Of a DNA stretch of 64,000 nt, positions 43,297 to 64,000 are shown one piece after another. A program made the translations under genes and the position numbers. This DNA is from an uncultured Prevotellaceae bacterium. Its GTDB lineage: Bacteria; Bacteroidota; Bacteroidia; Bacteroidales; Bacteroidaceae. The notes under the pieces were generated by a model. The model saw only the letters and a list, made by a program, of their open reading frames with translations, made no database searches and had not been told where the DNA came from. The first letter of the stretch is position 1. Every line of letters starts with the position of its first letter. The stretch is taken from positions 1,801 through 65,800 of the forward strand of contig ONKY01000033.1 in NCBI GenBank assembly GCA_900318585.1, in the 5' to 3' direction.

Positions 43297-45021
43297 ATGC
43301 TGAAAGAAGGCCAGATATTCGGAGAAAAGGAGAGGTACATGCTTGTCAGGCTACTTGGCCGCGGCAGCTTTGCTGAGGTTTGGCTGGCTGATGACACTTG
43401 GACAAAGATTCAGGTGGCCATCAAGATCTACGCCCCGGGCACCGGCTTGGACGATGACGGCATCAAGATTTTCACACAGGAATTCTCGATGGTGTTCGAC
43501 ATGAACCACACGAACCTCCTGAAACCCACCTACTTTGACAGCTGGGAACGTCAGCCCTACCTGATTATGCCACTGTGCAAGAATGGCTCTGCCTTCAAAT
43601 ATGTGACCGGCAAGGAACATATCACCGAGAAAGAGGCCTGGAAGATGCTGCACGACGTAGCTGCCGGACTGGCCTACCTGCATAGCAAGAAACCGCCCGT
43701 CATCCATCAGGACATCAAGCCCGACAATATCCTCATCAGCGACGAGGGACGCTACATGATTACCGACTTCGGTATAAGTGCCCGCGCGCGCAACACCATC
43801 CGTGGCGGGGCTCAGGAGCAGAGCGGCGGCACACTGGCCTACATGGGGCCGGAGCGCTTCAGTTCCACGCCAATACCCATCATGGCCAGCGACGTCTGGT
43901 CGTTAGGTGCCATGATGTATGAGATTATGACAGCCGGGAACCCACCCTTCGGCAACTACGGAGGCGTGACCCAGAAGAACGGGGCCGACATCCCCATCAT
44001 GGAAGAAAATTTCTCGGAAGAGCTGAAGAGCATCGTCTACAGCTGTCTGGCCAAGGAGACGTGGGAACGCCCATCGGCACAGGCCATTGAGGAGATGACC
44101 TACAACCACCTGCACGGCATCAACGTAGGCACCGTTCCCCTCACGGGAATGCAAGTAAAGACGGAGCCACAGCCTGCACCGCAGTCGCAATCGCAGCCGC
44201 AGCCTGTTCCCCAGCCACAACCGCAACCAGCGCCCCAGCCGGCATCGCAGCCGACACCGCAGCCAGTACCCCAGCCAAAGCAGGAGCCTGCCCCTAAGGT
44301 GGAACCAAAGCCTGCGAAGCAGCAGAAGCAGAAGCCTCAGCCAGCGCCCAAGGCTGCCCCTCAGCCGGAGCCGCAAGCCCAACAGATAGCGAAGAAGTCG
44401 CAGCCGCTGAATGCAAATCCTGTGGCAGACATCGTGGACAAATTCAAGAAGATGCCGCGTAACCTTCAGATTGGCATCGGTGCCGGCATTGTTGCCCTGT
44501 TGCTGATTATCGGGCTGGTAGCTTTCTGCAGCGGAGGCGGTGACCAGGCAGAGGAGCCGGTCGTTGAGACGTTGGCGCCACAGGTGAATTTGGACTCCAT
44601 TGCCCAGAGCAAGCTAATCATGGCCAATGAGTACGCCCAGAAGGCAGCCGACCACCAGGCTAAATACAGTGAGGAGCTGCTGAACCCTGAGAATGGAAAG
44701 ATAGAGGAATACTACATAGAAGTTATCAATAAGTGCAAGGAATATGATACTGAGGCGGAAGCTGCCGCTGGCTCTGCACTGACGAACGCCAGTCTGGGCA
44801 AGCAGCTGAACGCACTCAAGACAAATGCAGAGAGCCAGCTCTACAGCATCTATGTCATGCTGGAGCAGGACATCAAAGCTTTCACGCAGTTAGGATCAAA
44901 GGAAACGGCTGACCTCTACCAAGAGCGTGCCGACGCCATCCGTCCCTACATTGAGAAACTTATAGAAACAACAACATCCGAAACTAAACAAACAGAACTA
45001 ACAGAACAGACAGAAGAATGA
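43297..45021 (+). CDS. Membrane Ser/Thr kinase 1 (non-RD), PQ-rich linker, TM, helical extracytoplasmic domain
   Basis: GRGSFAEV, VAIK, HQDIKPDN, DFG, YMGPE; TM IGIGAGIVALLLIIGLVAF. Start placed at MLKEG. Confidence 0.92.
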   Translation: MLKEGQIFGEKERYMLVRLLGRGSFAEVWLADDTWTKIQVAIKIYAPGTGLDDDGIKIFTQEFSMVFDMNHTNLLKPTYFDSWERQPYLIMPLCKNGSAFKYVTGKEHITEKEAWKMLHDVAAGLAYLHSKKPPVIHQDIKPDNILISDEGRYMITDFGISARARNTIRGGAQEQSGGTLAYMGPERFSSTPIPIMASDVWSLGAMMYEIMTAGNPPFGNYGGVTQKNGADIPIMEENFSEELKSIVYSCLAKETWERPSAQAIEEMTYNHLHGINVGTVPLTGMQVKTEPQPAPQSQSQPQPVPQPQPQPAPQPASQPTPQPVPQPKQEPAPKVEPKPAKQQKQKPQPAPKAAPQPEPQAQQIAKKSQPLNANPVADIVDKFKKMPRNLQIGIGAGIVALLLIIGLVAFCSGGGDQAEEPVVETLAPQVNLDSIAQSKLIMANEYAQKAADHQAKYSEELLNPENGKIEEYYIEVINKCKEYDTEAEAAAGSALTNASLGKQLNALKTNAESQLYSIYVMLEQDIKAFTQLGSKETADLYQERADAIRPYIEKLIETTTSETKQTELTEQTEE

Positions 45022-45893
45022 GAAGCCTGATCAAGATACTGCTGCTGACTCTCATGCTTTGCCTGACGCCAGCAGCCAACACGTTTGCACAGAGCGCCGC
45101 GTCGAAATACGACGAGGGTGTGGCTCTGTATAACAAAGGGAACTATCAGGGCGCCATCAAACTCTTCAACGAGTCCATGATTCTGAACAAGAGCGCGGCC
45201 AACAAGAAGAAGTGCCAGGCCATGATAGCCAAATGCAACAAAGCCAGCAAAGCCAAGAAAAGTGAAGCGCAGGTCAAGAGCAAGCCTGTCGTCAGCGACA
45301 AGGTGACGCTGGAACGCGACGCAATCTATTTCGACGGACATGCTGCCGGAGCAGAGGTGATTGGCGTGAAGGCAGCAGGAGGATGGAAGGCTGAACTGGA
45401 GCACGAGGCCGACGGTTCCTGGTGCAGTATTGAACCCAAAGACGACGGAAACTTCCTGATTGTCAAGACAACGGCATCCAACCTGACCGTCTACAGGACG
45501 GCTAGCATAAAAGTTATCTCGGACAAGAACAGCCGCGAGGTGAAGAACCTCTTGGTTACCCAGGGGCCGGCAAGGAACGCAACACTCTCTGTCAGCAAAG
45601 AAGAGATCAAGAACATCAACCGCGCAGGCGACGAACAGGTGATTTCCATCAACTGCCAGTCGGACACGTTGCTGGCTGACGGCCGCAACTGGTTCATCAC
45701 AAAGGCGCCGTCATGGGTAAAGTTCCTCTCAACCAAGAAGCTGGGAAGGAAAGAGCGCACGGGCATCACCATGAACGAGCTCTCGATGCAGTTTGAAGCC
45801 AATCCGACCAAGGAAGAGCGAATCGGCTATATCGTCGTCAGAAGCCAAGATGCTGAGCGCCACATCAAGCTCATCCAGAAGAAGGGCAAATAA
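45018..45893 (+). CDS. Exported TPR-like + BACON-like protein
   Basis: Signal peptide, YDEGVALYNKGNYQGAIKLF, two W..W..N....R..I...Q modules. Confidence 0.7.
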   Translation: MRSLIKILLLTLMLCLTPAANTFAQSAASKYDEGVALYNKGNYQGAIKLFNESMILNKSAANKKKCQAMIAKCNKASKAKKSEAQVKSKPVVSDKVTLERDAIYFDGHAAGAEVIGVKAAGGWKAELEHEADGSWCSIEPKDDGNFLIVKTTASNLTVYRTASIKVISDKNSREVKNLLVTQGPARNATLSVSKEEIKNINRAGDEQVISINCQSDTLLADGRNWFITKAPSWVKFLSTKKLGRKERTGITMNELSMQFEANPTKEERIGYIVVRSQDAERHIKLIQKKGK

Positions 45894-45943
45894 GGAATCA
45901 TACTGACAATTATACTAAATACTAATAATAAAACCAAAAGACT

Positions 45944-46969
45944 ATGAGATGCAACAACTGTGGATGGGACAATGATCCAGGTGCCACCACCTGCGTGAAA
46001 TGCGGACACGCCATCCAAGGCGGCGGAGGTTACGCTGCAGATCCGTATCAAGGAGTAAACGTGCCCAACTACGGCGGAGGTGACTCACCACTGCCCAAAG
46101 CTACCGTCATTGGAGCAGCAGGAATGGGTGGAGGAGTACCTGCCATGGGTGGTAATGCACCCTTGCCTAAGGCTACTGTCATCGGAGCAGCCGGAATGGG
46201 CGGAGGAGTGCCTGTCATGGACGGTAACGCCCCACTGCCTAAGGCTACCGTCATCGGAGCAGCCGGAATGGGCGGTATGAGGGAACAGGCCCCACGCCCC
46301 ACTGTCATCGGAGCAGCAGGCGTAGCAGCAGCCCAGATGGCTCAAGCCATGCAAGCTCCCCAGCCGAACGTCGTCCCCGAGGGAACACGTCCCTGCCCAC
46401 AGTGCGGCTATCCTGTCATGAACGAATTCAACAGCTGTCCGAGCTGTGGCGCTCCTATCAATGCTGCTAACAAACCTAAGGAGAAACCCAAGGCCAAGCC
46501 GGCAGGCGTCAAGACGGAAGTGCCCAAGGCCGAGATTGACATAGATGAGAAGGTTACCTGCCAGAAATGCGGCTGCGAAGTACCTATCGACTTCAAGTTC
46601 TGCCCCAAGTGCGGCGAACGCATACACCTGCCGACCATCAGAGTGAAGCGCCACAAGCAAGCTCCGCCTCCTCCTGCTCCGAAATGCTCACTGACCATCA
46701 TTCCTGAGGAAGATGAACAGACTGAGGCAACGAAGAACAGCTACGAGGGAACTACTGTGATGCTGAACCGCGAGAACACAGAGAACTCCAACCGTACCAT
46801 CACCTCGAAGGAACAGGCACAGCTTAGCTACGAAGACGGGAAATGGTTTATCCAGAACAGTAGCGAACTGCACTCAACATACTTGGAGGCTAACCGTCCC
46901 TTGGAGATACAGCCCGGTGATGTCATCCTGTTAGGAGACCGCCGCTTCAAGTTCGAGACAGAGTCATAA
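45944..46969 (+). CDS. Zinc-ribbon (3 double CxxC) + TVIG repeats + degenerate FHA protein
   Basis: CNNC/CVKC, CPQC/CPSC, CQKC/CPKC; C-terminal ..GKWFIQ..IQPGDVILLGD FHA-like fold. Confidence 0.8.
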   Translation: MRCNNCGWDNDPGATTCVKCGHAIQGGGGYAADPYQGVNVPNYGGGDSPLPKATVIGAAGMGGGVPAMGGNAPLPKATVIGAAGMGGGVPVMDGNAPLPKATVIGAAGMGGMREQAPRPTVIGAAGVAAAQMAQAMQAPQPNVVPEGTRPCPQCGYPVMNEFNSCPSCGAPINAANKPKEKPKAKPAGVKTEVPKAEIDIDEKVTCQKCGCEVPIDFKFCPKCGERIHLPTIRVKRHKQAPPPPAPKCSLTIIPEEDEQTEATKNSYEGTTVMLNRENTENSNRTITSKEQAQLSYEDGKWFIQNSSELHSTYLEANRPLEIQPGDVILLGDRRFKFETES

Positions 46970-46987
46970 TTACCACAAACAGGTGCT

Positions 46988-48328
46988 ATGAGCAACTATC
47001 AGGTAGTAGACAGATGCGATTTTCAGCCTGGCCATATCATTGATAACACATATACGGTCAAGAAAACCCTCGGCGAGGGTTCCTTCGGTGTGGTCTATCT
47101 CGTAGAGGACCGCCACCGACTGAAATACGCTCTGAAGCTACTGCGCCTATGGGAGGTACCGGCAGAAATCCGGCAGCCGCTGATGGACCGCTTTGAGATG
47201 GAGTTCAAGACAGGACAGATTCCCTGCGAGAACTTGGTGCAGTCGTTAGCATACGGCACCGTGGGCGGGAATCCGTACATCGTCATGGAGTTCTGCCCCG
47301 GCGGTGACCTTGAGCCATGCTTAGGTCATGTGGACTCCAGGACACCCCGCATCTGCCAGGACATTCTGGTAGGCTTGAGTGCCCTTCATGCTCACGGGAA
47401 AGTACACCGCGACCTGAAACCGGAGAACGTCCTATTCAAGGAGAACGGTGCTGCAGCACTAACCGACTTCGGCATTGCCGGAGACCGGACAAACCGGATG
47501 ACACAGCGGAACATCTTCGGCAAACCCAATCAGATATTCGGCACATACGCCTATATGCCGCCTGAGCAGGTCATCCGTGCCCGTGGAGGCGCCACCGTAT
47601 TGCCGACTACCGATATTTTCTCATTTGGCGTGATGGTCTATCAACTGCTCACCGGCGAACTTCCTTTCGGAACTCTGGAGACCCACAATGACTTGGCAGA
47701 ATACCAGATTCGCGGAAAGAACGGCCAGTGGGATCGCAGCCGACTCATGAACGTACCCAATGCCCATCAATGGACACGACTGATTGAAGGCTGTCTGATT
47801 CCTGACTTCAAGATGCGTCTGCAGAGCGTCAGAGACGTGATACAGATGATTCCTGAAGGTGGCTATGTTCCCGCCCAGAGCAACTACGGCCGACAGCAAG
47901 GCGGATACGCCATGCAGCCGCAGGCCAGCACCCCGCCGCCGCAACTGTATTCCTATCAGCCGCAACAGCAGACGCATGGCTACCAGCTACGGGTGATGCA
48001 GGGAGAGCAGTACGGCCGCACCTACGACCTGAGCCAACTGCTGAGACAAGGACGCCGCGTGATGACCGTAGGCCGCGTGGAAGACAATGCCATTTGCATC
48101 AAGTCGGGCCAGATAGACTACCTGTCACGATACCACTGCACCATAGAAGTGGCCGACGGACACTGGGCCGTGCGTGACGGACAGTGGAGGAGCGACCTCC
48201 GACAATGGAGGAATTCCAGCAATGGCACCTACGTCAATTCCCACCCCGTCCTGCAAAGCGGCTATTACCTACAACCGGGCGACATCATCACTATGGGTGA
48301 TGTAACCCTGAGATTCGAGAATTATTAA
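46988..48328 (+). CDS. Soluble Ser/Thr kinase 2 (RD) fused to FHA
   Basis: GEGSFGVV, HRDLKPEN, DFG, YMPPE; FHA VGR..LSRYH..SSNGTYVN; no TM. Confidence 0.93.
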   Translation: MSNYQVVDRCDFQPGHIIDNTYTVKKTLGEGSFGVVYLVEDRHRLKYALKLLRLWEVPAEIRQPLMDRFEMEFKTGQIPCENLVQSLAYGTVGGNPYIVMEFCPGGDLEPCLGHVDSRTPRICQDILVGLSALHAHGKVHRDLKPENVLFKENGAAALTDFGIAGDRTNRMTQRNIFGKPNQIFGTYAYMPPEQVIRARGGATVLPTTDIFSFGVMVYQLLTGELPFGTLETHNDLAEYQIRGKNGQWDRSRLMNVPNAHQWTRLIEGCLIPDFKMRLQSVRDVIQMIPEGGYVPAQSNYGRQQGGYAMQPQASTPPPQLYSYQPQQQTHGYQLRVMQGEQYGRTYDLSQLLRQGRRVMTVGRVEDNAICIKSGQIDYLSRYHCTIEVADGHWAVRDGQWRSDLRQWRNSSNGTYVNSHPVLQSGYYLQPGDIITMGDVTLRFENY

Positions 48329-48365
48329 AGTACCAATAATTATTAACCCTTTAAAAAGTAACATT

Positions 48366-50192
48366 ATGGCAACACAAAATGGTTACAAGCGCACAGTGGC
48401 CGGCTCTGTAGGAGCAGGCATGGGTGCTATCTTCAACGGTTCAGGACGTACTTACTACATCCTGGAACACAAGACTAACTCTAAGTATCACTCTGCAGGC
48501 GAATCGCAGAAGATCATCATCGACCAGGTGGAACTGGGTCGTGACTCTTCATGTCAGGTACGCTTTGACGAGTCATTTGAAACCGTCAGCCGCAAGCACT
48601 GCGCCATCGTTCGCGACGGTCAGAACTGGCAGCTGGTACACCTTTCCACTTCCAACCCCACGCTGGTGAACGGCCGCCCCATCCAGGGCACATACTACCT
48701 GCAGTCGGGCGATGAGATCCAGCTCTCCGTCAACGGTCCGCGCTTAGGCTTTATCCAGCCGCAAGGCAAGCAGGCCCTCACGTCAAGCATCAAGCTGACC
48801 GAGCGTATGAACCTGTTCCGCCAGCAGGCCCTCCGCCCCTATCGCCGCGCTATCTGGGCATTGTCAGCCCTGTTGCTTCTGGCCATCATCGGCTTCGGAG
48901 CATGGAACTACAAGCTCAGCCTTGACAACAAGGAGCTCCGCCAGGAAATGGCTATGTACCAGTCGAAGCTCGACTCACTCTCGGTAGTCAAGCAGAACTT
49001 GATGCAGGAGGAGCAACAGCTCACCGAACAGTTAGAGTCAGCTCCCGCCGGACAGAAGGAGCAGATCCGTCAGCGCATTGTATACGTCAGGAGCCAGCTC
49101 TCCAACGTAGCTAACGAAGCCAGCCGCTATCAGAAGCAACTGGCTGTTGCACGCCAGACGGCCATCGACAACGGACTGGATGAAGATGAGTTCGACCTGC
49201 GTGACAATACTGGAGGGCCCGGCGTGGTCGATCCAGCACGAGAGGGTGAATCGTCGGCTACCGTCGCCAGCATCGGCGATCCCGACATCAACCACAATGT
49301 GGTAGGTCCCGGCACGGCTGTGGCCGGTGAAGCTGCCGCACAGACGGGAGCCTACAACGACAACCCGACGGCACACGGCGACGCCAGTGGTACCATCCGC
49401 GACTACTACAACCACATCTACTCACTGAAGATCCGCCGTATCAGCGTCGAGCGCGATGGCCGCTCCTTCGATCCGGGTATCTCACTCACCGACGTTATCT
49501 GCGGAACCGCCTTCGTACTGAGCAACGGTACGCTGGTCACCGCACGACAGAACATCGAGCCGTGGATCTTCTGGCGCCAGTTAGGTGGCAGATGGCGTGA
49601 GCTGATGGCCAACTACGTAGCCTTAGGCTTCAAGGTCATCATCGAGTACGATGCTTATAGTACAACAGGTACGGCTCATAAGCTGTCGTTCAACAACCTT
49701 GACTTCTTGGTAGACAGAAGCGGTGACGTCAGCGAGGAGACCGTGGAAATCGTGAAGGAGGTTCGCGCCATCCTGAAGGACAACGGTGTGAAAATCACTT
49801 CCAGCGAGCTGCGCGACCGCCGCATCCGCGTGATTACGCCCAGCTCACAGTGCTTCGCTATCCTGCCTGGCAAGGGCGGCGCAGGTATCCCCTACGACGC
49901 AGGTGCATCGCTCGCCAGCGACGGTGGTACAGAAGTACAGGTGGCAGGATTCAAGAACAATCCCGACATCCACAACCTGTCGAACTATATCAGCTACTTC
50001 AAGTCGAGCACATCACGTGCCGACACACGTAACGGTACCATCGTACTGCAGGATGCCAACCGCAACGCCGGTTATCTGGGCTCGCCTGCATTCTTCAAGG
50101 AGAAGGATGGCTCATACCGCGTGATCGGTGTGATGATTGGCCAGCTCTTTGGCGAAGACCGCCTCGTGCCTATCGCAAGATGTAACAAATAA
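48366..50192 (+). CDS. FHA-TM-coiled coil-inactive trypsin-like domain protein
   Basis: FHA LGRD..VSRKH..NPTLVNG; TM AIWALSALLLLAIIGFGAW; GTAFVLSNGTLVTARQN and GYLGSPAF..VIGV. Confidence 0.8.
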   Translation: MATQNGYKRTVAGSVGAGMGAIFNGSGRTYYILEHKTNSKYHSAGESQKIIIDQVELGRDSSCQVRFDESFETVSRKHCAIVRDGQNWQLVHLSTSNPTLVNGRPIQGTYYLQSGDEIQLSVNGPRLGFIQPQGKQALTSSIKLTERMNLFRQQALRPYRRAIWALSALLLLAIIGFGAWNYKLSLDNKELRQEMAMYQSKLDSLSVVKQNLMQEEQQLTEQLESAPAGQKEQIRQRIVYVRSQLSNVANEASRYQKQLAVARQTAIDNGLDEDEFDLRDNTGGPGVVDPAREGESSATVASIGDPDINHNVVGPGTAVAGEAAAQTGAYNDNPTAHGDASGTIRDYYNHIYSLKIRRISVERDGRSFDPGISLTDVICGTAFVLSNGTLVTARQNIEPWIFWRQLGGRWRELMANYVALGFKVIIEYDAYSTTGTAHKLSFNNLDFLVDRSGDVSEETVEIVKEVRAILKDNGVKITSSELRDRRIRVITPSSQCFAILPGKGGAGIPYDAGASLASDGGTEVQVAGFKNNPDIHNLSNYISYFKSSTSRADTRNGTIVLQDANRNAGYLGSPAFFKEKDGSYRVIGVMIGQLFGEDRLVPIARCNK

Positions 50193-50201
50193 CAGAAAAC
50201 T

Positions 50202-51632
50202 ATGTCAGAAGTGAAATTCAAGCTGGCAGCGGGCACAAATGTAGGACTCATCCGCACTAACAATGAAGACAACTTCGTTGTGTGCCCCGACCTCAGCACA
50301 TCGCAATGGCTCATCCCCCAGGACGGCGAATTCGCCGACCTGGGGCCTTACGGAGCCTTGCTCGTGGTGGCCGACGGCATGGGCGGCGCCAACGCTGGAG
50401 AAGTGGCCTCGGCCATTGCAGTCCAGACCATACAGGAGATATTTGTTCCCAACACATTGAAAAGTATTGTGGGTGACGAGAAAGCCATCCAGAAATTCAT
50501 GTCAGATGTGGTAAAAGCTGCCGACTTGAAGATTCTGAACCGAAGCACCACAGACAGCAACACCCGGGGCATGGGCACAACCGTGGTCATGGCCTGGATA
50601 CTTGGCACCCGTGCCTATGTTTGCTGGTGTGGCGACAGCAGATGCTACGCCTTGAGTCGGCGCAACAATCAGCTGATTCAGGTTTCAAAGGATCATTCCT
50701 ACGTACAGGAACTGGTGGATAGAGGGGAATTGGCTCCAGAATATATGCACGACCACCCGCTGTCAAACGTCATCACCCGCTGCCTGGGTGACACCGAGAA
50801 ACGGGCACAACCTGAGACCCGTGTTTTTGAACTATATGACGGCGACACCATCCTGCTCTGTAGCGACGGTCTTTCCGGCCTGATCTATGATGAACACATT
50901 GCCGCAATCCTCAGTGAGTTTAACGAGCATCCCATGGAATGCAAGAATGAACTGATCTCTGCTGCCCTCAACAATGGAGGGCACGACAATGTGACCGTGG
51001 CTATCTGCACCGTCAAGATGGGTGACGCCAGCATTGCTCCCCACCACCCCGCTACGCCCACGTCTTTCACCACAGAGAAAGAAGAGCTGCGGGCAACAGT
51101 GATTCCCGTTCCCATTGCTGAGCCGGAACATGACATCAAAGAAGAGCCCGTTCCCAGCTCGGCACCAGAAGCAGAGCCAAAGCAAGAAGCAGAGGCGAAG
51201 CCTGAGCCAGAGCAAAAGGCTGAGCCTGCACCAAAAGCAGAAAGCACTCCCAAGCCTGAACCTCAACCTGTCAAGGAAGAGAAAAAGGAAGAAGGCGTGA
51301 AGGACGACAGCAAGGCACAGAAGGCCCCTGACGCTCAAGAGAAAGAGCAGAAAGAGGAAGCCAAAGGAGAAGCTGGGAAAGAGGAGCAGAAAGCAGAACC
51401 TGAAAAGAAGGAACTACAAAAGGAGGAAGAGACGGAAAAGCCAGAACCAGAGCAAGGTGAAAAGACAGAGAGTAAGAAGGAAAAGAGTAAGGTGAAAATC
51501 TTCCTCCTCGTTCTGCTTCTTCTGATCATCGCTGCCGTTTGCTGTATCTATCTGATTCCTGCAGCTGAACCTATCAGACATTTTATTTCAGAATTCATCA
51601 ACAATTTATCCCAAAATCTTAAAAGAAAATGA
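50202..51632 (+). CDS. PP2C/PPM Ser/Thr phosphatase with C-terminal membrane anchor
   Basis: GLIRTNNED, VADGMGG, GDSR, CSDGL, GGHDNVT; E/K/P-rich linker; TM IFLLVLLLLIIAAVCCIYLI. Confidence 0.93.
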   Translation: MSEVKFKLAAGTNVGLIRTNNEDNFVVCPDLSTSQWLIPQDGEFADLGPYGALLVVADGMGGANAGEVASAIAVQTIQEIFVPNTLKSIVGDEKAIQKFMSDVVKAADLKILNRSTTDSNTRGMGTTVVMAWILGTRAYVCWCGDSRCYALSRRNNQLIQVSKDHSYVQELVDRGELAPEYMHDHPLSNVITRCLGDTEKRAQPETRVFELYDGDTILLCSDGLSGLIYDEHIAAILSEFNEHPMECKNELISAALNNGGHDNVTVAICTVKMGDASIAPHHPATPTSFTTEKEELRATVIPVPIAEPEHDIKEEPVPSSAPEAEPKQEAEAKPEPEQKAEPAPKAESTPKPEPQPVKEEKKEEGVKDDSKAQKAPDAQEKEQKEEAKGEAGKEEQKAEPEKKELQKEEETEKPEPEQGEKTESKKEKSKVKIFLLVLLLLIIAAVCCIYLIPAAEPIRHFISEFINNLSQNLKRK

Positions 51633-51901
51633 AAACATTATTTTTTTCTATAGTTGCCATCGCCATGATGGGAATCGCTTCCGTATCATGCGCCAGTCAT
51701 ACAACCTACCGTACCTATGGTGACGCCCCGACATACGAGACATCGGGCACATGGAAGCGCTGCATCGCCTGTGACGGAAAAGGCTCTTGCGCACCCTGTA
51801 AGGGTACTGGACGCATCAGTGGCGACGCCTGCCGCAATTGTAAAGGTTCAGGAAAGTGCCCCACCTGCAAGGGTAACGGCGGCTACTACGTAGACAATTA
51901 A
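51629..51901 (+). CDS. Small lipoprotein with DnaJ-type CxxCxGxG zinc finger (x4)
   Basis: Lipobox SVSC; CIACDGKG, CAPCKGTG, CRNCKGSG, CPTCKGNG. Confidence 0.8.
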   Translation: MKTLFFSIVAIAMMGIASVSCASHTTYRTYGDAPTYETSGTWKRCIACDGKGSCAPCKGTGRISGDACRNCKGSGKCPTCKGNGGYYVDN

Positions 51902-51908
51902 TACACCA

Positions 51909-51947
51909 CTGGTGGGGCGGGAACAAACTTGTTCCCCGCCCCATCAG
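51909..51947 (+). other. Intra-operon GC-rich hairpin
   Basis: ctggtggggcgggaacaa-ac-ttgttccccgccccatcag; no U tract. Confidence 0.6.
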
Positions 51948-56321: not shown

Positions 56322-56330
56322 AAAAAGACT

Positions 56331-57386
56331 ATGAGAATCAATTGTTATTATAAGGTTCGCGTAAAAGTGATGGCAATCCTGTTATTACACATTCTTGCCG
56401 TATTACCTTCCCAGGCACAAACTCCGGTGGAAAAGATGAACGAAATAAAGATGTCTACAGGATATATTTGGGACGAGTATACCCATCCTGATGCTGACAC
56501 TGCTACAGTCGGGGCGATGCGTCGTCTGCTACTCTATATCGAAGTGCCTTCTGGTCAGGCATTAGACGTTGAAGACATCAAGCCCAGCACGAAGTTTATC
56601 AAAATCAAACGATCTAACCTGACACGCATTTTTGCATATATTAAAAAGGAAGATGCACAGAAGATTGCAATGGCTGGTCCTGGAAATAAAGGGGCAGCAG
56701 GACAGTCTTCGGCAGTAGAATCACCCAAGACGGAACAAGCATCTGCCGTCAAGGAAGCACCTGTAGAGGAGAAAGCCACAAAGGCTGAGAAGGCTGCTAA
56801 AACAAAAGAAAAGTCCAAGGAAAAGAAAGCAAAGGCCGAAAAGGCTCCAAAGGAAGAAAAAGCACCAAAGGCTGAGAAGGTAAAGGAGTCCCGCAAAGCA
56901 AAGAAGACGAATGCTAAGGAAGCTCCAGTAGATGCCCCGTCGGCACCTGCTGTCCAGGAGACACCCACTGTCCAGGAGGCTCCAGCGACCACTCAGGCTC
57001 CTGCCGCACAAGCGACTCCAGTTACCAAGGAAGCTCCGAAGGTTGTTGAAGCGCCCAAAGTGGTAGAGGCTCCACAGAAGAATTCAAAGGTATTCGCCAT
57101 TGCACAAAAGATCATGGACATCGCTGACTTCTATCAAGTCTACGAATACCTACAGAATAGTCAGAAGAACGGAACCATCGATTCCTTTGGTGCGCCGAAG
57201 AATGCGCCCAACATGGCCGAGTGCAACGTGGCTGTCTTCAAGAAGGGAGCCAAAAGGATTGCCTGCGTGCTTTCCACTTCAGCAAACGGTGAAACAAGAA
57301 GGAATCTGACAACTGGAGAAATTGACAGCATCAGTAATTACCAGGATGGCAACTACACTGCTATCTGGTTCAAGATAAAGGAATAG
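56331..57386 (+). CDS. Exported two-domain hypothetical protein with K/A/E-rich linker
   Basis: Signal peptide ..PSQA-Q; long KAEKAPKE tract. Confidence 0.75.
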   Translation: MRINCYYKVRVKVMAILLLHILAVLPSQAQTPVEKMNEIKMSTGYIWDEYTHPDADTATVGAMRRLLLYIEVPSGQALDVEDIKPSTKFIKIKRSNLTRIFAYIKKEDAQKIAMAGPGNKGAAGQSSAVESPKTEQASAVKEAPVEEKATKAEKAAKTKEKSKEKKAKAEKAPKEEKAPKAEKVKESRKAKKTNAKEAPVDAPSAPAVQETPTVQEAPATTQAPAAQATPVTKEAPKVVEAPKVVEAPQKNSKVFAIAQKIMDIADFYQVYEYLQNSQKNGTIDSFGAPKNAPNMAECNVAVFKKGAKRIACVLSTSANGETRRNLTTGEIDSISNYQDGNYTAIWFKIKE

Positions 57387-57452
57387 AAACACATACCAAG
57401 ATATTGATAACAAGAAATTATTAAAGAAAGAAAAATGAATAATACTATAAGG

Positions 57453-58442
57453 ATGAAGAAACTAGTATTCACATTAACGCTCTTCCTTGCCGCACTTACC
57501 GGACGTGCACAGGAGAATGTAACTTTCCGCATTACTGACGGTATCGCAAATGACGGTCTGAAGACCAGGATAGAACGCAACGTGTCGTCATTGCTTTCCG
57601 AAATCAATCGTGCGTGCAGCGCCAAGCGTGACCTGCAGCTTATCGGCTTTGGCATCACGGAGAATGCTTCCCACTCGCTGAGCCTGCTTTGGAACAACTT
57701 GCATTTCTCCTGCGAAGACCAGCAAATCTATGAGCGTTGCTACACCACCGTCAACGGCTATCAATTCCGTAACATTCCCATTCATATCGAGCCTGTCATC
57801 GAAGGTTATGACGGAGAACTGGAGCGTGAACTGACCATCAGTATCAGCAAGGAAGGAGATATTACTGGCGCCCGTATGGCTATGGCCAGCCACGTCTACA
57901 CCAATATCATCAAGCAGGGCGATGCCGTAGACATGGCTCGGCGTGAAGAGATCCTGAAATTTGTGGAAGACTTCCGCAGCCACTACGACGAGAAGGACAT
58001 ACAGGCCCTGAACCAGGTGTTCAGCGACGAGGCTCTCATCATCACGGGCTCCGTCATCATGAAACGTGACTACAGCGGCGACCAGCCCCAGATGCGCCCA
58101 GAGATTGTCTACCGCACCCAGAACAAGCAGGAGTATCTCTCGCGACTGGCCAAGACGTTTAGGAACAACAAATATATCAAGGTTACATTCGACGACCCAG
58201 AAGTAGTACGTTCGAAGAAAAACCCGAATTTCTTCGGTGTCACCCTTCACCAGCACTGGAAGTCGGACAACTACGAGGATGACGGCTATGTATTCCTCCT
58301 GTGGGAGTTCCACGAGAATGGCGAACCACCCATCATCCACGTCCGTACCTGGCAGCCCGACCGTATGGGCGGTGCTCCCACGCCCAAGGATAAGATTATC
58401 AATATCCTTGACTTCGAGATACCTGCCAAGAAGCGCAGCTAA
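57453..58442 (+). CDS. Exported protein with NTF2-like C-terminal domain
   Basis: Signal peptide; YDEKDIQALNQVFSDEALII, QHWKSDNYEDDGYVFLLW, IHVRTWQP. Confidence 0.65.
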   Translation: MKKLVFTLTLFLAALTGRAQENVTFRITDGIANDGLKTRIERNVSSLLSEINRACSAKRDLQLIGFGITENASHSLSLLWNNLHFSCEDQQIYERCYTTVNGYQFRNIPIHIEPVIEGYDGELERELTISISKEGDITGARMAMASHVYTNIIKQGDAVDMARREEILKFVEDFRSHYDEKDIQALNQVFSDEALIITGSVIMKRDYSGDQPQMRPEIVYRTQNKQEYLSRLAKTFRNNKYIKVTFDDPEVVRSKKNPNFFGVTLHQHWKSDNYEDDGYVFLLWEFHENGEPPIIHVRTWQPDRMGGAPTPKDKIINILDFEIPAKKRS

Positions 58443-58489
58443 AATAGTTAAGACTTACACTGAAAACAAATAATAAAACAATAGTATCT

Positions 58490-59383
58490 ATGGGAAAGAA
58501 TATTAAACTGACAGTACTGATGTGCCTCTTGACGCTCAGCGCTACGGCACAGGAAATCAGCCTCCGTGACCTTCGGCAGGCGCCGCAGTTCATTGCAAGC
58601 AGCGACCAAGTACGCGACTGGGATGACGAGCCGTGTGCCCTGGTTAAGATTCAAGGAGCCAATATCGACAGTATCTCCGGTGCCTTTGAAGTGGTGAAGC
58701 GCTCAGGTGAGACATGGGCCTACATGACGAAAGGCGACAAGAAGCTCACCATCTTCAAGGAAGGCTACCAGCCCCTCCCCGTCCTGTTCGACGACTATGG
58801 CATAGAGGGTTTGCAGAGCAATCGCGTCTATATCATTGCCATCTTTGCCCCGGAGCTGAAGCCCAAGAAGTGGTTCATTGGTATCCATGGCGGAGCCAAC
58901 TTCTCCACGGCGAGCCTGAAGACAGGCTATAGCGATAGTCCTAAAATGGTAACCAACTTCAACGTGGGCGGTACTGCCACTTATAAGTTCTCCGACTTCA
59001 TAGGTGTTACGGCTGGACTGTTCTACTCGGCCAAGGGCTACAAATATGATGACGATAATATTACCGAAGAGAAATGTGACGGTTCATTCCTCGACATCCC
59101 CATCCTGGCCAACCTCTTCTATGACGTTTCCCCGTCGGTGACGCTTCAGGCCATGGCGGGTCCCTACCTCGCCTATTGCATTACCGGAAAGGTCACTTGT
59201 GAGAAACCCTGGCAAGATGATAATTTCAATGATGTCTATTCCAGCTTCGACTATGGCATTCAGGGCGGCATAGGTGCTACCTTCGCCAAGCATTATTCCA
59301 TCAACGCTACCTATCAGTACGGCTTTGGACTCGACAAATACGAGAACCAGACCATCTGTCTGAACTTAGGCTACATCTTCTAA
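58490..59383 (+). CDS. PEGA-like domain + outer-membrane beta-barrel protein
   Basis: LTIFKEGYQP; YSAKGY, FLDIP, GPYLAY, FDYGI; terminal LNLGYIF. Confidence 0.75.
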   Translation: MGKNIKLTVLMCLLTLSATAQEISLRDLRQAPQFIASSDQVRDWDDEPCALVKIQGANIDSISGAFEVVKRSGETWAYMTKGDKKLTIFKEGYQPLPVLFDDYGIEGLQSNRVYIIAIFAPELKPKKWFIGIHGGANFSTASLKTGYSDSPKMVTNFNVGGTATYKFSDFIGVTAGLFYSAKGYKYDDDNITEEKCDGSFLDIPILANLFYDVSPSVTLQAMAGPYLAYCITGKVTCEKPWQDDNFNDVYSSFDYGIQGGIGATFAKHYSINATYQYGFGLDKYENQTICLNLGYIF

Positions 59384-59413
59384 ATTCTGTAACCTTACAA
59401 GAACGATAACACT

Positions 59414-61264
59414 ATGAATATAAGAAATATCATTAACTGGACTTTTGGACTGTGCTTGACTGTCCTCCTGACAGCGTGCCCTTCCGACTCTCCAGACATA
59501 GAACTCAGCGTAGACAAGTCTACCATAGATATTCATCCAGATGGAGGAGAAGTGTCTTTTAATATTACTTCCAATACCCATTGGACTATTAGTATTAATG
59601 GCTCATGGTTTAATTGTTCCAAAACATCAGGAGACCAGAATGAAAGAATCACTATCACTGCCACTGCAAATGACACTGGTAAAGATCGTGAAGCGCTCCT
59701 AACAATCAATGACAAAACGGGTAATGTGTCAAAAACTGTCAAAGTAACCCAAAAAGCTGCGAAAAACAATAATCCTACGACGGAGTCCACGCTCTCTGTA
59801 TCTCCCACAACTTTGGATTTTTCTGCTGACGGCGGAGAGATAACTGTCAATGTAACATCCAACACCAAATGGACTGCACTGGATAGACCAAGCTGGATTA
59901 CCATTAGCAGTACGACTGGCAATGGAGACACCAGCCTGAAACTCACAGCTTCTGCCAACACTTCTACAGACGAACGCAGTGGCAACGTTAAGTTTAGCAC
60001 TGAAGATGGAAAGGTCACTACTACCATTACGGTTCGACAGTCAGGCACATCTGCCTCCCTCTCGCTCTCGAAGGGAGAGCTTAGTTTCTCGTCATCCGCA
60101 TCCAATAACACCACCTTCGACATCACGTCAACCGGTTCCTGGACGGTCACCGACGACGCCTCTTGGCTCTCCTGCTCACCTTCCGAAGGAAAGGGCAACC
60201 AGACCATCACCGTTACGGTAACTGAGAACACTGACCAGCAGGAACGCTCAGCCAAGATTTCCGTCAAGAGTGGAAACATCACCCGCACCATCAATGTACG
60301 CCAGTCGGGTGTTAACGCTTCCCTCTCACTCTCGAAGTCAGAAATCAGCTTCACTGCTGCCGCATCCAACAACACCTTCGACATCACTTCAAACAGCTCT
60401 TGGACGGTCACCGACGACGCCTCTTGGCTGTCCTGTTCACCTACTGAAGGAAAGAACAACCAGACCATCTCCGTTACGGTGTCGGAGAATACCAATAAAG
60501 CAGAGCGTAATGCCACGATTACCGTCAAGTGTGGAAATCTCACCCGTACCATTTCCGTCAAGCAGGCAGCACCCGCCACTCCCGTCAACGACGTGAACAT
60601 TGACAAGGGCGGTTTCGGCAATGACAGTGAGCTACCCAACAACAACGGCGGCAGCACGGAGACCTACTCGTTGAAAGCAAGCACTGCAAGCCTGTCGTTT
60701 ACTGCTGACCCCGCAAGTGGCAAGACCTTCAATATCACAAGTAACGACAGTTGGAGAATCGCTGCAGACTCGTGGATTACCGTCAGCCCCTCCAGTGGCA
60801 GTAATAATGCTACCATTACCGTCAATGTTGCCAACAATCCGAATACAAGCTCGCGTACGGGTACCATTACCATCACAGGTACCCACGCTACGACGTCAGC
60901 CACGGTTACTGTGCAGCAAGCTGGCAAGAGTGTGAACTTCAACGCTACCGTTGCCTCCTCGCTCGACTTCAATTCCGGCGGCGGAACGGGTAGTATCAGC
61001 ATCAGCGGCAACGACTCCTGGACCGTCACCGAGAACGCCTCTTGGCTTAGCTGCTCACCCACTTCCGGCACGGGCAGCGGCACCGTCTATGTGACCGTCA
61101 ATTCCAGAACCGACACAGGCAAACGTACTGCCGACATCGTTGTCAAGGGAACATCCTCTGGCATTACCCGCACCTTCACCGTCACCCAGACCGGTGCTGC
61201 TGTCGACGTGAACATCGACAAGGGAGGTTTTGGCAATGACAAGCAGCTGTCAAGAAAGAAATAA
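59414..61264 (+). CDS. Multi-BACON-domain lipoprotein (6 modules)
   Basis: LLTACPSDSPDIELSV leader; WTVTDDASWLSCSP modules shared with 32063 and 36387. Confidence 0.88.
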   Translation: MNIRNIINWTFGLCLTVLLTACPSDSPDIELSVDKSTIDIHPDGGEVSFNITSNTHWTISINGSWFNCSKTSGDQNERITITATANDTGKDREALLTINDKTGNVSKTVKVTQKAAKNNNPTTESTLSVSPTTLDFSADGGEITVNVTSNTKWTALDRPSWITISSTTGNGDTSLKLTASANTSTDERSGNVKFSTEDGKVTTTITVRQSGTSASLSLSKGELSFSSSASNNTTFDITSTGSWTVTDDASWLSCSPSEGKGNQTITVTVTENTDQQERSAKISVKSGNITRTINVRQSGVNASLSLSKSEISFTAAASNNTFDITSNSSWTVTDDASWLSCSPTEGKNNQTISVTVSENTNKAERNATITVKCGNLTRTISVKQAAPATPVNDVNIDKGGFGNDSELPNNNGGSTETYSLKASTASLSFTADPASGKTFNITSNDSWRIAADSWITVSPSSGSNNATITVNVANNPNTSSRTGTITITGTHATTSATVTVQQAGKSVNFNATVASSLDFNSGGGTGSISISGNDSWTVTENASWLSCSPTSGTGSGTVYVTVNSRTDTGKRTADIVVKGTSSGITRTFTVTQTGAAVDVNIDKGGFGNDKQLSRKK

Positions 61265-61319
61265 GCCCAACAGAGAAGCAATACCATCAATAAGAAACAA
61301 ATAAAAAAACAATCATATT

Positions 61320-62903
61320 ATGACTTACAAGAATTATTTCCACCCAATATGCATGGCCATCCTTTCTACCATGTTCCTCGCCGCCTGCTCCAGCAATGAC
61401 GACAGCCTTGATCAGGCAGCCAATCCTCAGGAGGAAGTATGCATCCTTCACTGGGACGCTCCCGCACCGAGCTTCGAGTCTGACAACCAGACACGCGCCA
61501 CCACAGACTGGGTCAACGGCAGCAAGATCTACATACGCCTCAAGGCAAATAATTCCACTTACCTGCTCGGCGCCACCTATACCAGTGGCTACTGGATTGT
61601 TGACGGCAACGTCAGTGCAGTACCCACCACCGCAACTTCTGCCACAGCAGAAATCTACTATTTCGAGAACCCCGGCAGCGCCACCAGCAGCCGTGTGAAC
61701 CTCAACGAGCAGTCCATCGTCTACTATGGCACAGGCACCTATTCACACCCTGCCGCCGCCGAGTTCTACGTCAACGTCAAAATCAATCCCGTCACCTGGC
61801 GGCTGCGCTTCCTCGGCTCGTCCAGTGCCAATTCCATCTCCTTGGACGGCAGCAACACCGACATTGAGTATTACACCTCCTACGACATCAATGCCGGCAC
61901 ACTCACCAAGGCACAGCGCGACGTGGCACTCACCACTGGCAGCAACAACTACACACCCTACATCTACGGCGTTTTCAAGAACTCCGGCAACAACACTCTG
62001 CGCTACACCACCAGCAACGGCTACTTCTACCGTACCATCAAGTCTTCCGACCTTCAGGTGGCTGGCAGCGGCTACTGCCAGATTCCTACCGCCAGCAACT
62101 ACGCCTCGGCAGGATGGCAGTATGTAGCCAACAGTAGCAGCTCAAATGCAAAGGTAGAACCTGATTTCTTAGTGACATTTACTGATGGAATAGTGACCGA
62201 CTTCAAGGCCAGCAATGATGTGGCATACTGGGATTATATGATTTACAACAAGAATACTGATTCTGATACCGAGATTATCAATTCTTTTAAGGAGGGAGAA
62301 AAGATTCCTGCTGAAGAAGCAGAATATGTTTTCAGAATGATAGATAGCGATTTCTTCTTCCCCAATACCACCTATTATCTCTACACCATTGCCTACGACA
62401 AAAATGGCAATCATGGAGAACTACAGAAAATCACTTTCAAGACAAGAGCAACTACCTTACCTTTAGCTTCAATCACAAGTGTTGTGCCAAGTAGCCAAAA
62501 TGGTACGGCAATATGGGATATTAATATGTCTCTGACTAACAGTGCAACTGGTTTTTATCTTTTTGCCAGTGAAGATAATGTTAATTATAATTATGACTCC
62601 CACCTTATCGCATGGCTTAGCTACTATGGAATCATGAAAGATAATCAAGATTATGCCTATGGTCCTATTGAAGGAGAAGGAGAAGGAGAAGGTTCTTTAC
62701 ATCTGAGACGTAGCGGCTCAGTATTATCAATTGTAACCTGGGCCATCAATTCCAGCGGTACTGTCGGTAACTATAGTGCAGGCTACTATCCCGCCAAGTC
62801 AACAGCCAGAGCAAAGGAGGTCAACTATATACTGAACAACAAAATAGGTATCCCCAAGCCCAATCTCTCCAATTACAAAATTCTCAAGATAGATAACAAA
62901 TAA
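61320..62903 (+). CDS. Fimbrillin-like lipoprotein
   Basis: Lipobox LAAC-SSNDD followed by QTRATTDWVNGSKIYI (TRA..W..G..I pattern of type V pilin-like proteins); YYLYTIAYD FN3-like segment. Confidence 0.6.
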   Translation: MTYKNYFHPICMAILSTMFLAACSSNDDSLDQAANPQEEVCILHWDAPAPSFESDNQTRATTDWVNGSKIYIRLKANNSTYLLGATYTSGYWIVDGNVSAVPTTATSATAEIYYFENPGSATSSRVNLNEQSIVYYGTGTYSHPAAAEFYVNVKINPVTWRLRFLGSSSANSISLDGSNTDIEYYTSYDINAGTLTKAQRDVALTTGSNNYTPYIYGVFKNSGNNTLRYTTSNGYFYRTIKSSDLQVAGSGYCQIPTASNYASAGWQYVANSSSSNAKVEPDFLVTFTDGIVTDFKASNDVAYWDYMIYNKNTDSDTEIINSFKEGEKIPAEEAEYVFRMIDSDFFFPNTTYYLYTIAYDKNGNHGELQKITFKTRATTLPLASITSVVPSSQNGTAIWDINMSLTNSATGFYLFASEDNVNYNYDSHLIAWLSYYGIMKDNQDYAYGPIEGEGEGEGSLHLRRSGSVLSIVTWAINSSGTVGNYSAGYYPAKSTARAKEVNYILNNKIGIPKPNLSNYKILKIDNK

Positions 62904-62911
62904 ATGATTCT

Positions 62912-64000
62912 ATGCGCATAAGCTATCTATTGACTGCGCTATTCTCCATGATGCTGTGCATGCCCACTCAGGGCTATGCACAGCATCGGGATGTCAGCCA
63001 GGCAAGAGCCATTGCCCAACAATTCTGGAACGTTCAGGCAGCGCGCTCTGTTAATGGCAGTGCGCATCAGACTGCTACAATGATGCTCCACGAACAGGCC
63101 TCCAGCCCTTCGCACTACCTTTTTACCCGCACAGCCGCAGACGGTACTACCCTTCCTGGCTTTGTCCTGGTATCGGCCGACGAGTGTATGCCTGCCGTTC
63201 TAGGTTTCTCAAGCGACTGTTCTCTTCCCGCTGGACCACTGCCCGATCATGTCGAGTCCTGGCTACGTGTCTACGATGACATGACGGCCCTTTGCCAGTC
63301 CAGCCCACAGTCGAAAGCAGCCTATGAACAGGCCGCCATCTGGCCTGACGGCGGAGAGGAGGTGGCCCCCCTGCTGGGTGAGATGCAGTGGGATCAAGAC
63401 TCCCCCTACAACCAGTTATGTCCGACAGACGATGAGGGAAAACTCGCCGTCACTGGCTGTGTAGCCACCGCCCTGGCCCAAATCATGCGTATGCACCAAT
63501 GGCCCGTACAGGGCACTGGCTATAAAGAATACTACTGCAGCAGCCTGAATAAGAATGTCTCGTTCGACTTCGACAAGGCCCGCTTTGACTGGGCCAACAT
63601 GCAGGACAAGTACGATGAGGATTACAGCCCGGAGTCGGCCACTGCCGTCGCCCAGCTCATGCAAGCCGTTGGCACAGCCGTCAGCATGAACTACGGCGTA
63701 AACAGCAGCGGCGCCATGAGCAGGGACGCCGTCACCGGCCTTAGCAAATATTTAGGCTACGACGCCGACGTCTACCTTGCCACCCCCAAGGACTACACCG
63801 AACGGCAGTGGCACCGTCTGCTGCAGCAGGAACTGTGGCAGGGGCGTCCCGTCTATTATGCCGGCAATGGCCACGCCTACGTCATCGATGGCATCAAAGT
63901 AGGCGAGGACGAGTTGACCTACTACCACGTCAACTGGGGGTGGAGTGGCAACTTCAACGGTTATTTCCTCCTCCACCTGCTGCGTCCCCACGGCACAGGC
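62912..64000 (+). CDS. C10 family cysteine peptidase (SpeB/interpain-like) with prodomain, 3'-partial
   Basis: Not in ORF track because it has no stop in the window. My translation: MRISYLL.., GFVLVSAD..AVLGFS, QWDQDSPYNQLCP, TGCVATALAQIM, GHAYVIDG, YHVNWGWSG. Confidence 0.92.
   Translation, partial: MRISYLLTALFSMMLCMPTQGYAQHRDVSQARAIAQQFWNVQAARSVNGSAHQTATMMLHEQASSPSHYLFTRTAADGTTLPGFVLVSADECMPAVLGFSSDCSLPAGPLPDHVESWLRVYDDMTALCQSSPQSKAAYEQAAIWPDGGEEVAPLLGEMQWDQDSPYNQLCPTDDEGKLAVTGCVATALAQIMRMHQWPVQGTGYKEYYCSSLNKNVSFDFDKARFDWANMQDKYDEDYSPESATAVAQLMQAVGTAVSMNYGVNSSGAMSRDAVTGLSKYLGYDADVYLATPKDYTERQWHRLLQQELWQGRPVYYAGNGHAYVIDGIKVGEDELTYYHVNWGWSGNFNGYFLLHLLRPHGTG

Follow-up and report, generated by a model that had tools for sequence, protein, structure and literature searches.

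A co-oriented kinase/FHA/PP2C gene cluster of a rumen Prevotella-type genome and its possible coupling to an envelope-protein module

Several described systems resemble the locus treated here. In the actinobacterial fhaA-fhaB-pstP-rodA-pbpA-pknA-pknB cluster (Mycobacterium, Corynebacterium), several Hanks kinases, a membrane PP2C phosphatase, and soluble and membrane FHA proteins are encoded in one operon, and its receptor kinases carry extracytoplasmic sensor domains. In the PpkA-PppA-Fha1/TagQRST pathway of the type VI secretion system (T6SS) of Pseudomonas aeruginosa, a membrane kinase, a PP2C and an FHA protein are accompanied by periplasmic and outer-membrane (OM) accessory proteins, and TagQ/R/S/T feed an envelope signal to the kinase that gates a trans-envelope machine. 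Operons with FtsZl1 (Pfam Tubulin_2) are predicted membrane-remodelling systems and often hold vWA proteins and Ser/Thr kinases, with OmpA-like OM proteins in several genomes; FHA and Do-protease neighbours of FtsZl1 are single cases in Planctomycetes (Makarova and Koonin, 2010; PMC2875224). Tubulin/vWA/GTPase/kinase-PP2C “conflict systems” have been proposed by Kaur et al. (2020; PMC7159879). Here we describe a gene cluster, g01-g18, that combines four kinases, FHA proteins and a PP2C with envelope and surface proteins. It starts in the last third of the window, i.e., the whole stretch of 64,000 nucleotides that was analysed, which corresponds to positions 1801-65800 of an 82-kb contig (ONKY01000033.1) from an 85% complete rumen Prevotella-type genome.

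From window position 43297 on, open reading frame (ORF) calls and Pfam place 16 co-oriented plus-strand genes within the window and 18 on the contig (Table 1). All intergenic gaps across g01-g18 are 60 nt or shorter and four gene pairs overlap. The promoter motif listed in Table 1 is the sole intergenic TAnnTTTG from 42900 to 67900, with none between the genes of the cluster; the next one lies at 67924, 3' of g18, and a GC-rich hairpin with a T-tract directly 3' of g18, a convergent terminator, closes the operon. These results agree with a previous reading made from the sequence only (hereafter, the sequence-only reading), in which at least 16 tightly spaced or overlapping genes behind one promoter had been proposed. 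We tentatively regard the locus, at a little under an even chance, as a single long operon with three modules: A (g01-g09; kinases, readers and phosphatase), B (the ectodomain of receptor kinase g09, named STK4, with g10-g13) and C (g14-g18). That a resident Bacteroidales phosphothreonine (pThr) cassette has thereby been coupled to an envelope-spanning protein module in one operon is a proposal that we likewise place just short of evenly balanced.

Two lines of sequence comparison, the layout of two other loci and the co-variation of a kinase ectodomain, argue that modules A and B form one system in a subclade. The closest g10 homologues, 48-51% identical, are located in two loci laid out like the window, L081 and L082. 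L081 holds g01-g07, g09-g13 and a lipoprotein with four BACON domains, and its g05 is 71% identical; L082 holds g03-g07, a split STK4, g10-g13, two BACON proteins and a Peptidase_M6. Since g05 of L082 is only 41% identical, the arrangement has survived considerable divergence. The M6 peptidase belongs to a different secreted-peptidase family and occupies the place of the C10 peptidase of the window; g13 is 48-50% identical in the two loci, and BACON lipoproteins are also found 3' of g13 in both, so that g10-g14 are kept with the core as the sequence-only reading would have it. The core and g10/g12 homologues occur together in L060, and in L010 both are on one contig about 4 kb apart. Concerning the ectodomain, the position of g09 in sister Prevotella loci is taken by a kinase with a Sel1/TPR-like ectodomain, followed by an exported WG-repeat protein, and in some of these loci an OM-barrel gene is inserted before the WG-repeat gene. 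The ectodomain of the last kinase thus changes together with the downstream exported genes. On its periplasmic side, STK4 has a linker of low complexity that leads into a C-terminal MORN-like domain of about 75 residues, and this ectodomain is similar (E 1e-5 to 1e-14) to a domain of the bitopic protein of FtsZl1-headed modules (L058_05, L059_09, L061_10, L062_04 and L065_10). A kinase of another genus (L060), encoded 5' of g10/g12 homologues, also carries the STK4-type MORN-like domain. In L082 (8319-10029), the equivalent of STK4 consists of two proteins, a tail-anchored kinase of 356 aa and a TM-MORN-like protein of 206 aa (TM, transmembrane), and therefore the ectodomain can work as a separate polypeptide.

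The FtsZl1-headed modules give the wider context of g10-g13. In seven of ten inspected g10-g12 loci (L057, L058, L059, L061, L062, L064 and L065), a gene for a protein of about 206 aa comes first, then one for a protein of about 1030 aa with Tubulin_2 (FtsZl1) and GYF_2 domains, one for a bitopic protein, and g10-g12. In the bitopic protein, a Zn ribbon at the N-terminus is followed by a single TM segment, a linker of low complexity and, at the C-terminus, a MORN-like domain of about 75 aa. Large exported proteins come after g10-g12 in several of these loci; those of L059 carry PEGA/CarboxypepD_reg/Lcl_C domains, and the N-terminal domain of g13 is present in L058 and L059. This domain of about 100 aa is common to g13 and to the large PEGA/CarboxypepD_reg/Lcl_C proteins that close FtsZl1-headed modules, with matches to residues 17-123 of L059_03 (E 2e-7) and to L058_09/10/13. 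A PEGA domain had been assigned to g13 itself, and Pfam made no such call, the OM barrel being confirmed. Homologues of g11 lie between those of g10 and g12 in L057, L058, L059, L062, L064, L065, L081, L082 and contig C77. Proteins g10-g12 have no family assignment: for g10 no Pfam, PADLOC or PDB sequence match was obtained, PDB sequence searches with g10, g11 and g15 returned nothing usable, the fold of g10 matches NTF2-like/SnoaL/Lumazine_bd_2 domains, and g12 resembles atlas clusters named “NTF2 family protein” (score 0.98). Homologues of g12 are present in 62 of 200 sampled genomes of the family (Bacteroidaceae) and are far commoner than the kinase core.

A second g10-g11-g12 copy is present in the same genome on the minus strand of contig C77 (L083; 3929-9745), with g12 41-45% identical. 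Its head comprises a 123-aa LytTR DNA-binding protein, a 224-aa FHA-TM-Zn-ribbon protein, a protein of 256 aa and a Zn-ribbon protein of 327 aa whose FHA is weak, and the g10-g12 homologues of L010 are preceded by the same FHA/LytTR head. The FtsZl1 loci, STK4 with L060, and C77 with L010 therefore give three heads of the NTF2-type module: FtsZl1-GYF, receptor kinase and FHA/LytTR. In three other genera, g15-like lipoproteins are found near ORFs with a g12-like NTF2 domain (G475:C40, G519:C26 and G552:C129). FtsZl1 was not detected in this genome by tblastn with the Tubulin_2-GYF protein of L059, and no gene of the operon matched Tubulin_2. We infer that an FtsZl1-type tubulin-like GTPase, and not kinases, drives this envelope module in most other Bacteroidaceae. 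The Bacteroidaceae FtsZl1-GYF/NTF2 operon appears to be unstudied, and no experimental follow-up on FtsZl1 was found in the literature. A bolder proposal, which we consider rather unlikely, is that g10-g13 together with the surface BACON lipoproteins and the secreted peptidase constitute an unrecognised Bacteroidales trans-envelope apparatus, made of periplasmic NTF2-like proteins and an OM barrel, with interchangeable cytoplasmic drivers (FtsZl1, kinase/FHA/PP2C or FHA/LytTR). If this were true, pThr signalling and a cytomotive GTPase would be alternative engines of one envelope-remodelling or surface-display machine.

Genes g01-g09 are syntenic in 10 rumen Prevotella loci, and a deeper core, comprising the Zn-ribbon protein, the kinase-FHA, the FHA-TM-S1 protein, PP2C and one to four receptor kinases, occurs in at least five Bacteroidales families and in metagenomic contigs. 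The neighbourhood comparison thus bears out that the kinase/FHA/PP2C set is co-conserved. Zn-ribbon, kinase-FHA, FHA-TM-S1, PP2C and TM-kinase genes are adjacent and co-oriented, as in L010-L022, L033 and L034, and the same synteny is seen in L060, L078 and L080-L082. The ectodomains of the receptor kinases vary across these loci (FGE-sulfatase, BACON, YARHG), and some branches add a MotA/ExbB-like protein, a coiled-coil protein or extra FHA proteins. Among species representatives the core is rare, being found in 1 of 24 genomes of the genus and 6 of 400 of the order (5 families), and the N-terminus of g05 was found in 0 of 400 further Bacteroidota genomes sampled phylum-wide, nearly all of them outside Bacteroidales. 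The core follows ksgA here and lies between ligA and trmD in several sister loci; its position differs from that in most sister loci, and therefore it has moved. Literature searches for a Bacteroidales kinase/FHA/PP2C/S1-protease cassette yielded general surveys only, and the view that the system is undescribed stands.

Two further arrangements were observed around the core. In branches with an active protease (L020 4772-6432, L021 and L079), coiled-coil TM and MotA/ExbB-like genes are located just before the FHA-TM-S1 gene; the MotA/ExbB-like neighbour suggests a step coupled to the proton-motive force, without counterpart in the Prevotella branch. In the metagenome contigs L034/L035, genes are found behind the core for a protein of 1050 aa, an OM barrel of 532 aa, three small proteins, a pair of TssR-like vWA proteins, an ABC ATPase with an FtsX permease, another OM barrel and a GDSL lipase; they make up a third type of envelope module that accompanies this core. 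A link to T6SS through the TssR-like gene after the core in L034 was considered and rejected, the extension in L035 being a TssR-like vWA pair with ABC/FtsX, an OM barrel and a lipase.

The signature of the cassette is g05, in which a long coiled coil lies between the TM segment and the periplasmic domain. Foldseek on the predicted model relates its N-terminal part to the FHA domains of OdhI/GarA (TMt 0.86) and its C-terminal part to HtrA2/Deg5/HTRA1 (E about 1e-5), and the HtrA fold is kept. Distant homologues have TARH, a conserved Asp and GNSGGP in the periplasmic domain, and g05 reads TARQN for TARH and GYLGSP for GNSGGP in the alignment with these active proteins. Judging from the loss of the catalytic His and Ser, the protease is catalytically dead, and the earlier description as an FHA-TM-pseudoprotease is upheld by both the alignment and the model. 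The FHA-TM-S1 profile collects 402 clusters (50% identity) with E < 1e-30; among the best 141 longer members, both the His and Ser motifs are present in 92 and neither in 26 under a strict pattern. Because the 26 motif-less members are mostly of the long Prevotella-type form, this form is a derived pseudoprotease branch.

All four Hanks kinases have kept the catalytic Lys and DFG. The membrane-bound non-RD kinases g01, g08 and g09 have HQD and one TM segment each; the soluble RD kinase g04, fused to FHA, has HRD and none. Pfam and TM prediction are thus in accord with the three TM kinases with different outer domains and the soluble kinase-FHA that had been read from the sequence. The ectodomains of the three receptor kinases are small and mutually unrelated: that of g01, preceded by a Pro/Gln-rich linker and the TM segment, is helical and about 150 aa long, and that of g08 has a TPR-like C-terminal motif. 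Each receptor kinase adjoins genes of exported proteins (g01/g02, g08/g07 and g09/g10-g13); the start of g02 overlaps the stop of g01, and g02 is syntenic in nine Prevotella loci. The best-conserved core gene is g04, 33-73% identical across families. Five good Hanks kinase domains were detected in this genome, four in the operon and one on contig C32. The latter is part of a 1014-aa ORF about 6 kb from an FHA gene (206-aa ORF), and the two form a locus separate from the operon (minus strand, about 8000-14700).

Of the three FHA proteins that had been counted, g04 and g05 have good domains and the C-terminal domain of g03 is degenerate, with 18.3 bits against a cut-off of 20.7 and with SxxH and NG lost in the alignment. 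A tandem repeat in g03 (window 46079-46275; 72-bp period, 2.7 copies) encodes four copies of (K/R)(A/P)TVIGAAG, and this motif is found in one or two copies each in 3 of 13 other g03 homologues inspected. A role of these TVIG repeats as FHA docking sites was set aside, the motif being present in only three orthologues and amplified in the window. Another motif, LT(I/L)IPE(E/D), immediately precedes the FHA-like domain and is kept in nearly all Prevotella orthologues. Phosphatase g06 has the RTNNED and VADGMGG motifs, an acidic Glu/Lys/Pro-rich linker of about 150 aa and a tail-anchor TM segment at residues 433-451. The lipoprotein g07, with weak Pfam matches to DnaJ_CXXCXGXG and DUF7895, is syntenic in the Prevotella loci, L034, L081 and L082; it probably faces the periplasm, because no acidic residues follow its lipid-bearing Cys.

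In module C, acidic residues stand directly behind the lipid-bearing Cys in g14, g15, g17 and g18. Such residues are a surface-exposure signal of lipoproteins in Bacteroides, and because of them g14 is probably surface-exposed. That g15 is a lipoprotein was confirmed; its fimbrillin-like character was not, the atlas feature match to Mfa_like_1 (0.90) being a language-model lead only. Its family is sparse (10 of 200 genomes). Inspection of the genes beyond position 64000 showed that the operon continues: g16 ends at contig position 66892 (726 aa), g17 is a lipoprotein with three BACON domains, and g18 (L002 5417-6262) is a 281-aa lipoprotein, a paralogue of the N-terminal half of g15 (window 61320-62150) with 34% identity.

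Table 1. Features of the operon in window coordinates.
Feature	Description	Position	Strand	Evidence
Promoter motif	TAccTTTG, Bacteroidetes-type -7	43115..43122	+	about 175 nt 5' of g01
g01	STK1, non-RD (HQD) Hanks receptor kinase	43297..45021	+	Pkinase E 1.3e-46
g02	exported TPR + BACON protein	45018..45893	+	BACON E 5e-11, TPR_2, signal peptide
g03	cytoplasmic scaffold, three Zn ribbons + degenerate C-terminal FHA-like domain	45944..46969	+	Zn_Ribbon_1, DZR
g04	soluble RD (HRD) kinase + canonical FHA	46988..48328	+	Pkinase 2.3e-38, FHA 6e-13
g05	FHA, TM, coiled coil, periplasmic S1/HtrA-fold pseudoprotease (predicted)	48366..50192	+	FHA 1.3e-15
g06	PP2C phosphatase, C-terminal TM	50202..51632	+	PP2C_2 5.3e-18, PP2C 3.5e-13
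g07	90-aa lipoprotein, DnaJ-type CxxCxGxG zinc-finger repeats	51629..51901	+	lipobox, Cys repeats
g08	STK3, non-RD (HQD) receptor kinase, TM	51962..53479	+	Pkinase 8.9e-42
g09	STK4, non-RD receptor kinase, TM	53489..55168	+	Pkinase 4.7e-45
g10	exported, tandem NTF2-like domains	55140..56321	+	AlphaFold model pLDDT 90
g11	exported, conserved ends, low-complexity middle	56331..57386	+	signal peptide
g12	exported, C-terminal NTF2-like domain	57435..58442	+	weak Cds6_C match
g13	outer-membrane beta-barrel	58490..59383	+	OMP_b-brl_2 8.6e-19
g14	lipoprotein, six BACON domains	59414..61264	+	BACON 8.7e-65, lipobox
g15	527-aa lipoprotein	61320..62903	+	no Pfam or PDB match
g16	secreted C10 cysteine peptidase, I69 (Spi-like) propeptide	62912..64000, on past window	+	Peptidase_C10 2.3e-64, Inhibitor_I69 5.4e-13

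The locus is present letter for letter in other public assemblies, where the gene calls match, including the 574 aa of g01. For expression, metatranscriptome contigs from four bovine libraries of one study were used; their depth is low and they are contigs instead of reads. RNA contigs appear to cover much of g01-g12, one of them beginning at 43174, and to bridge g01/g02, g03/g04, g05/g06, g06/g07 and g09/g10; most of g13-g16 has no RNA-contig cover in the four libraries, which does not imply silence. The RNA contigs lend weak support to transcription, and to co-transcription across the A/B junction g09/g10. A sigma-70 and terminator scan gave counts no better than shuffled sequence and was not used. 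The gap between g07 and g08 is filled by a near-perfect GC-rich inverted repeat, GGGGCGGGAACAA..TTGTTCCCCGCCCC (window 51914-51942), with no T-tract behind it; the repeat might represent a REP-like insertion within the operon or a site of RNA processing or attenuation.

The cluster is flanked upstream by ksgA on the opposite strand and downstream by a small OM-barrel gene (opposite strand), a Plug/DUF4249 pair, asd and an RND efflux operon. An island-like stretch (window 28517-41807) borders ksgA and the operon on their upstream side; in it, a primase gene of VapE-like/BT4734 type on the minus strand and a DUF6078 gene are succeeded by two cassettes, each composed of a BACON lipoprotein and a large RCC1 or BspA-type LRR protein.

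On the proposed coupling, a trans-envelope phospho-signalling unit is plausible and would work as follows. Each receptor kinase would read the state of the adjacent exported partner proteins, STK4 reading a periplasmic assembly of the NTF2-like g10-g12 that may reach the OM barrel g13, the surface BACON lipoproteins and the C10 peptidase. The kinases would phosphorylate Thr sites on the g03 scaffold and on one another, and the signals may converge on the RD kinase-FHA g04 and on this Zn-ribbon scaffold. The FHA domains of g04 and g05 would read the pThr marks, PP2C g06 would reset them, and g05 might carry the cytoplasmic pThr state across the inner membrane as a non-catalytic periplasmic peptide binder. 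As the output, envelope or surface remodelling would be controlled post-translationally; since neither a DNA-binding nor a classical effector domain is encoded in the operon, the target would be the envelope/surface module itself. On C77, the FHA/LytTR proteins at the head of the second g10-g12 copy may be further recipients of the output.

Several points weigh against the coupling and the single operon. Most core-bearing Prevotella are without g10-g13 and most g10-g12 modules are without kinases, and the coupling is therefore facultative and modular. The likeness of the STK4 ectodomain is confined to about 75 residues of MORN-like type, and such repeats could recur by convergence; moreover, the operon has no output domain, i.e., no DNA-binding domain or enzyme effector. 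The set g14-g18 is unique to the species, g15-g18 together having been found only there (the identical contigs L031/L032 extend only into g14), and since similar BACON cassettes lie just upstream (32063-41807), g14-g18 could be mere neighbours. The expression evidence is at contig level only, with DNA carry-over possible. A complex prediction of the STK4 ectodomain with g10 and g12 scored 0.07, which weighs neither for nor against binding.

These points lead to the strongest alternative, an accidental composite in which a self-sufficient signalling cassette, perhaps with a distant target, is read through into unrelated g10-g18 inserted downstream. What follows the last kinase is different in 9 of 10 sister Prevotella loci (a WG-repeat protein, then trmD), the frequency of g12 in the family far exceeds that of the core in the genus and the order, and the sparse g15 family and the upstream BACON-lipoprotein cassettes fit such an insertion. 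Against chance insertion stand the recurrence of core, g10-g13 and BACON in L081 and in the strongly diverged L082, and a kinase ectodomain that resembles the protein heading free-standing g10-g12 modules and varies in step with the genes downstream; moreover, g09 overlaps g10 by 29 nt and the pair is bridged by contigs of the RNA libraries. We hold the composite to be on the whole unlikely. Even so, the view of an invariant system, self-contained as first proposed, must be given up, since most sister loci swap g10-g18 and g10-g12 are found mostly behind an FtsZl1-like GTPase without kinases; of the circuit from cytoplasm to surface, the phospho-signalling across the envelope is retained as plausible and the single fixed gene set is not.

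The locus could instead be a conflict or defence system, akin to those proposed by Kaur et al. (2020). Phage or competitor attack at the envelope would be sensed by a diversifying array with variable ectodomains and a pseudo-enzyme decoy, and a protective response would be set off. The patchy distribution, a chromosomal position unlike that of the sister loci (ksgA versus ligA/trmD), the swapping of ectodomains among orthologues and the VapE-like primase gene 13 kb upstream would fit this idea, and elsewhere the partner module is run by FtsZl1; GTPase systems that contain tubulins have been read as conflict systems (PMC7159879). PADLOC-DB 2.0, however, gave generic kinase-domain matches only (mad6, PD-T4-6) to the four kinases, a weak PDC-M21C on the PP2C and 0 matches for 13 others; no toxic effector is recognisable, sister loci are flanked by housekeeping genes, and no integrase or other mobile-element gene directly adjoins the cluster. 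A defence role is thus quite improbable, and neither the sensing of contact or damage nor the defence output of the sequence-only reading is directly supported. Far less probable still, and largely refuted for this genome, is control of cell wall or division of the PknB/PstP/FhaA-FhaB type or a T6SS-type threonine-phosphorylation switch. The same writer, reader and eraser parts are present, including a membrane PP2C and a membrane FHA protein, and the FHA of g05 has NCBIfam matches to FhaB/FipA and to TIGR03354 VI_FHA (TagH); these scores are far under the cut-offs (28.8 versus 125 bits and 23 versus 120), and no PASTA domain and no SEDS/PBP or division genes are on the contig, Pfam giving no match to PASTA, FTSW_RODA_SPOVE or transpeptidase on the 18 genes or neighbours. 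A housekeeping role is also hard to reconcile with so rare a cassette. VipB (PF05943) and TssR_VWA (PF20782) had no match in this genome, 85% complete as it is, and only the VipB search is informative because the TssR_VWA model matched no control genome either. The stated absence of T6SS, vWA, TerY and division genes was thus borne out, and PADLOC matched no system.

Ser/Thr kinase signalling is almost unstudied in Bacteroidales, which are dominant in gut and rumen communities, and the present locus is a concrete parts list of a multi-kinase hub. It also offers a natural experiment, with active and dead protease branches and with ectodomains swapped in step with exported neighbours. Because a domain-fusion link ties the FtsZl1 partner module to a kinase, the locus gives a first hint of what Bacteroidaceae FtsZl1-type tubulin homologues act on. 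If the coupling is real, it would be a new route to sense or remodel the outer surface, relevant to interactions with host, diet and phages. Kinase/FHA/PP2C signalling itself is known; the comparison suggests that the new point is a module swap tying FtsZl1-type envelope modules to pThr signalling.

The differences from the known systems can be listed accordingly. Compared with the T6SS pathway, the kinases of the operon have no vWA ectodomain and no T6SS genes were found in the genome; the partners here are NTF2-like proteins, an OM barrel, BACON lipoproteins and a peptidase. The Bacteroidaceae FtsZl1-GYF operons share with the locus the g10-g12 homologues, downstream proteins with the N-terminal domain of g13 and a bitopic partner whose ectodomain is homologous to that of STK4, whereas the locus has no FtsZl1 and no vWA protein and carries the kinase cassette in place of the GTPase head. 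Unlike the actinobacterial pknB cluster, the operon has no PASTA and no RodA/PbpA and is accessory instead of universal in distribution, and it adds the kinase-FHA fusion, the Zn-ribbon scaffold, the FHA-TM-S1 (pseudo)protease and the downstream envelope genes. The nearest relatives are the other Bacteroidales kinase/FHA/PP2C/S1 cassettes (L020, L021, L022, L078 and L080), which have the same core in the same order with varied ectodomains. In comparison with them, the Prevotella branch is without MotA/ExbB-like, coiled-coil and c20 genes, its protease is predicted to be dead, it has four kinases, and in a Prevotella subclade the NTF2/OM-barrel/BACON/peptidase module is present behind the core.

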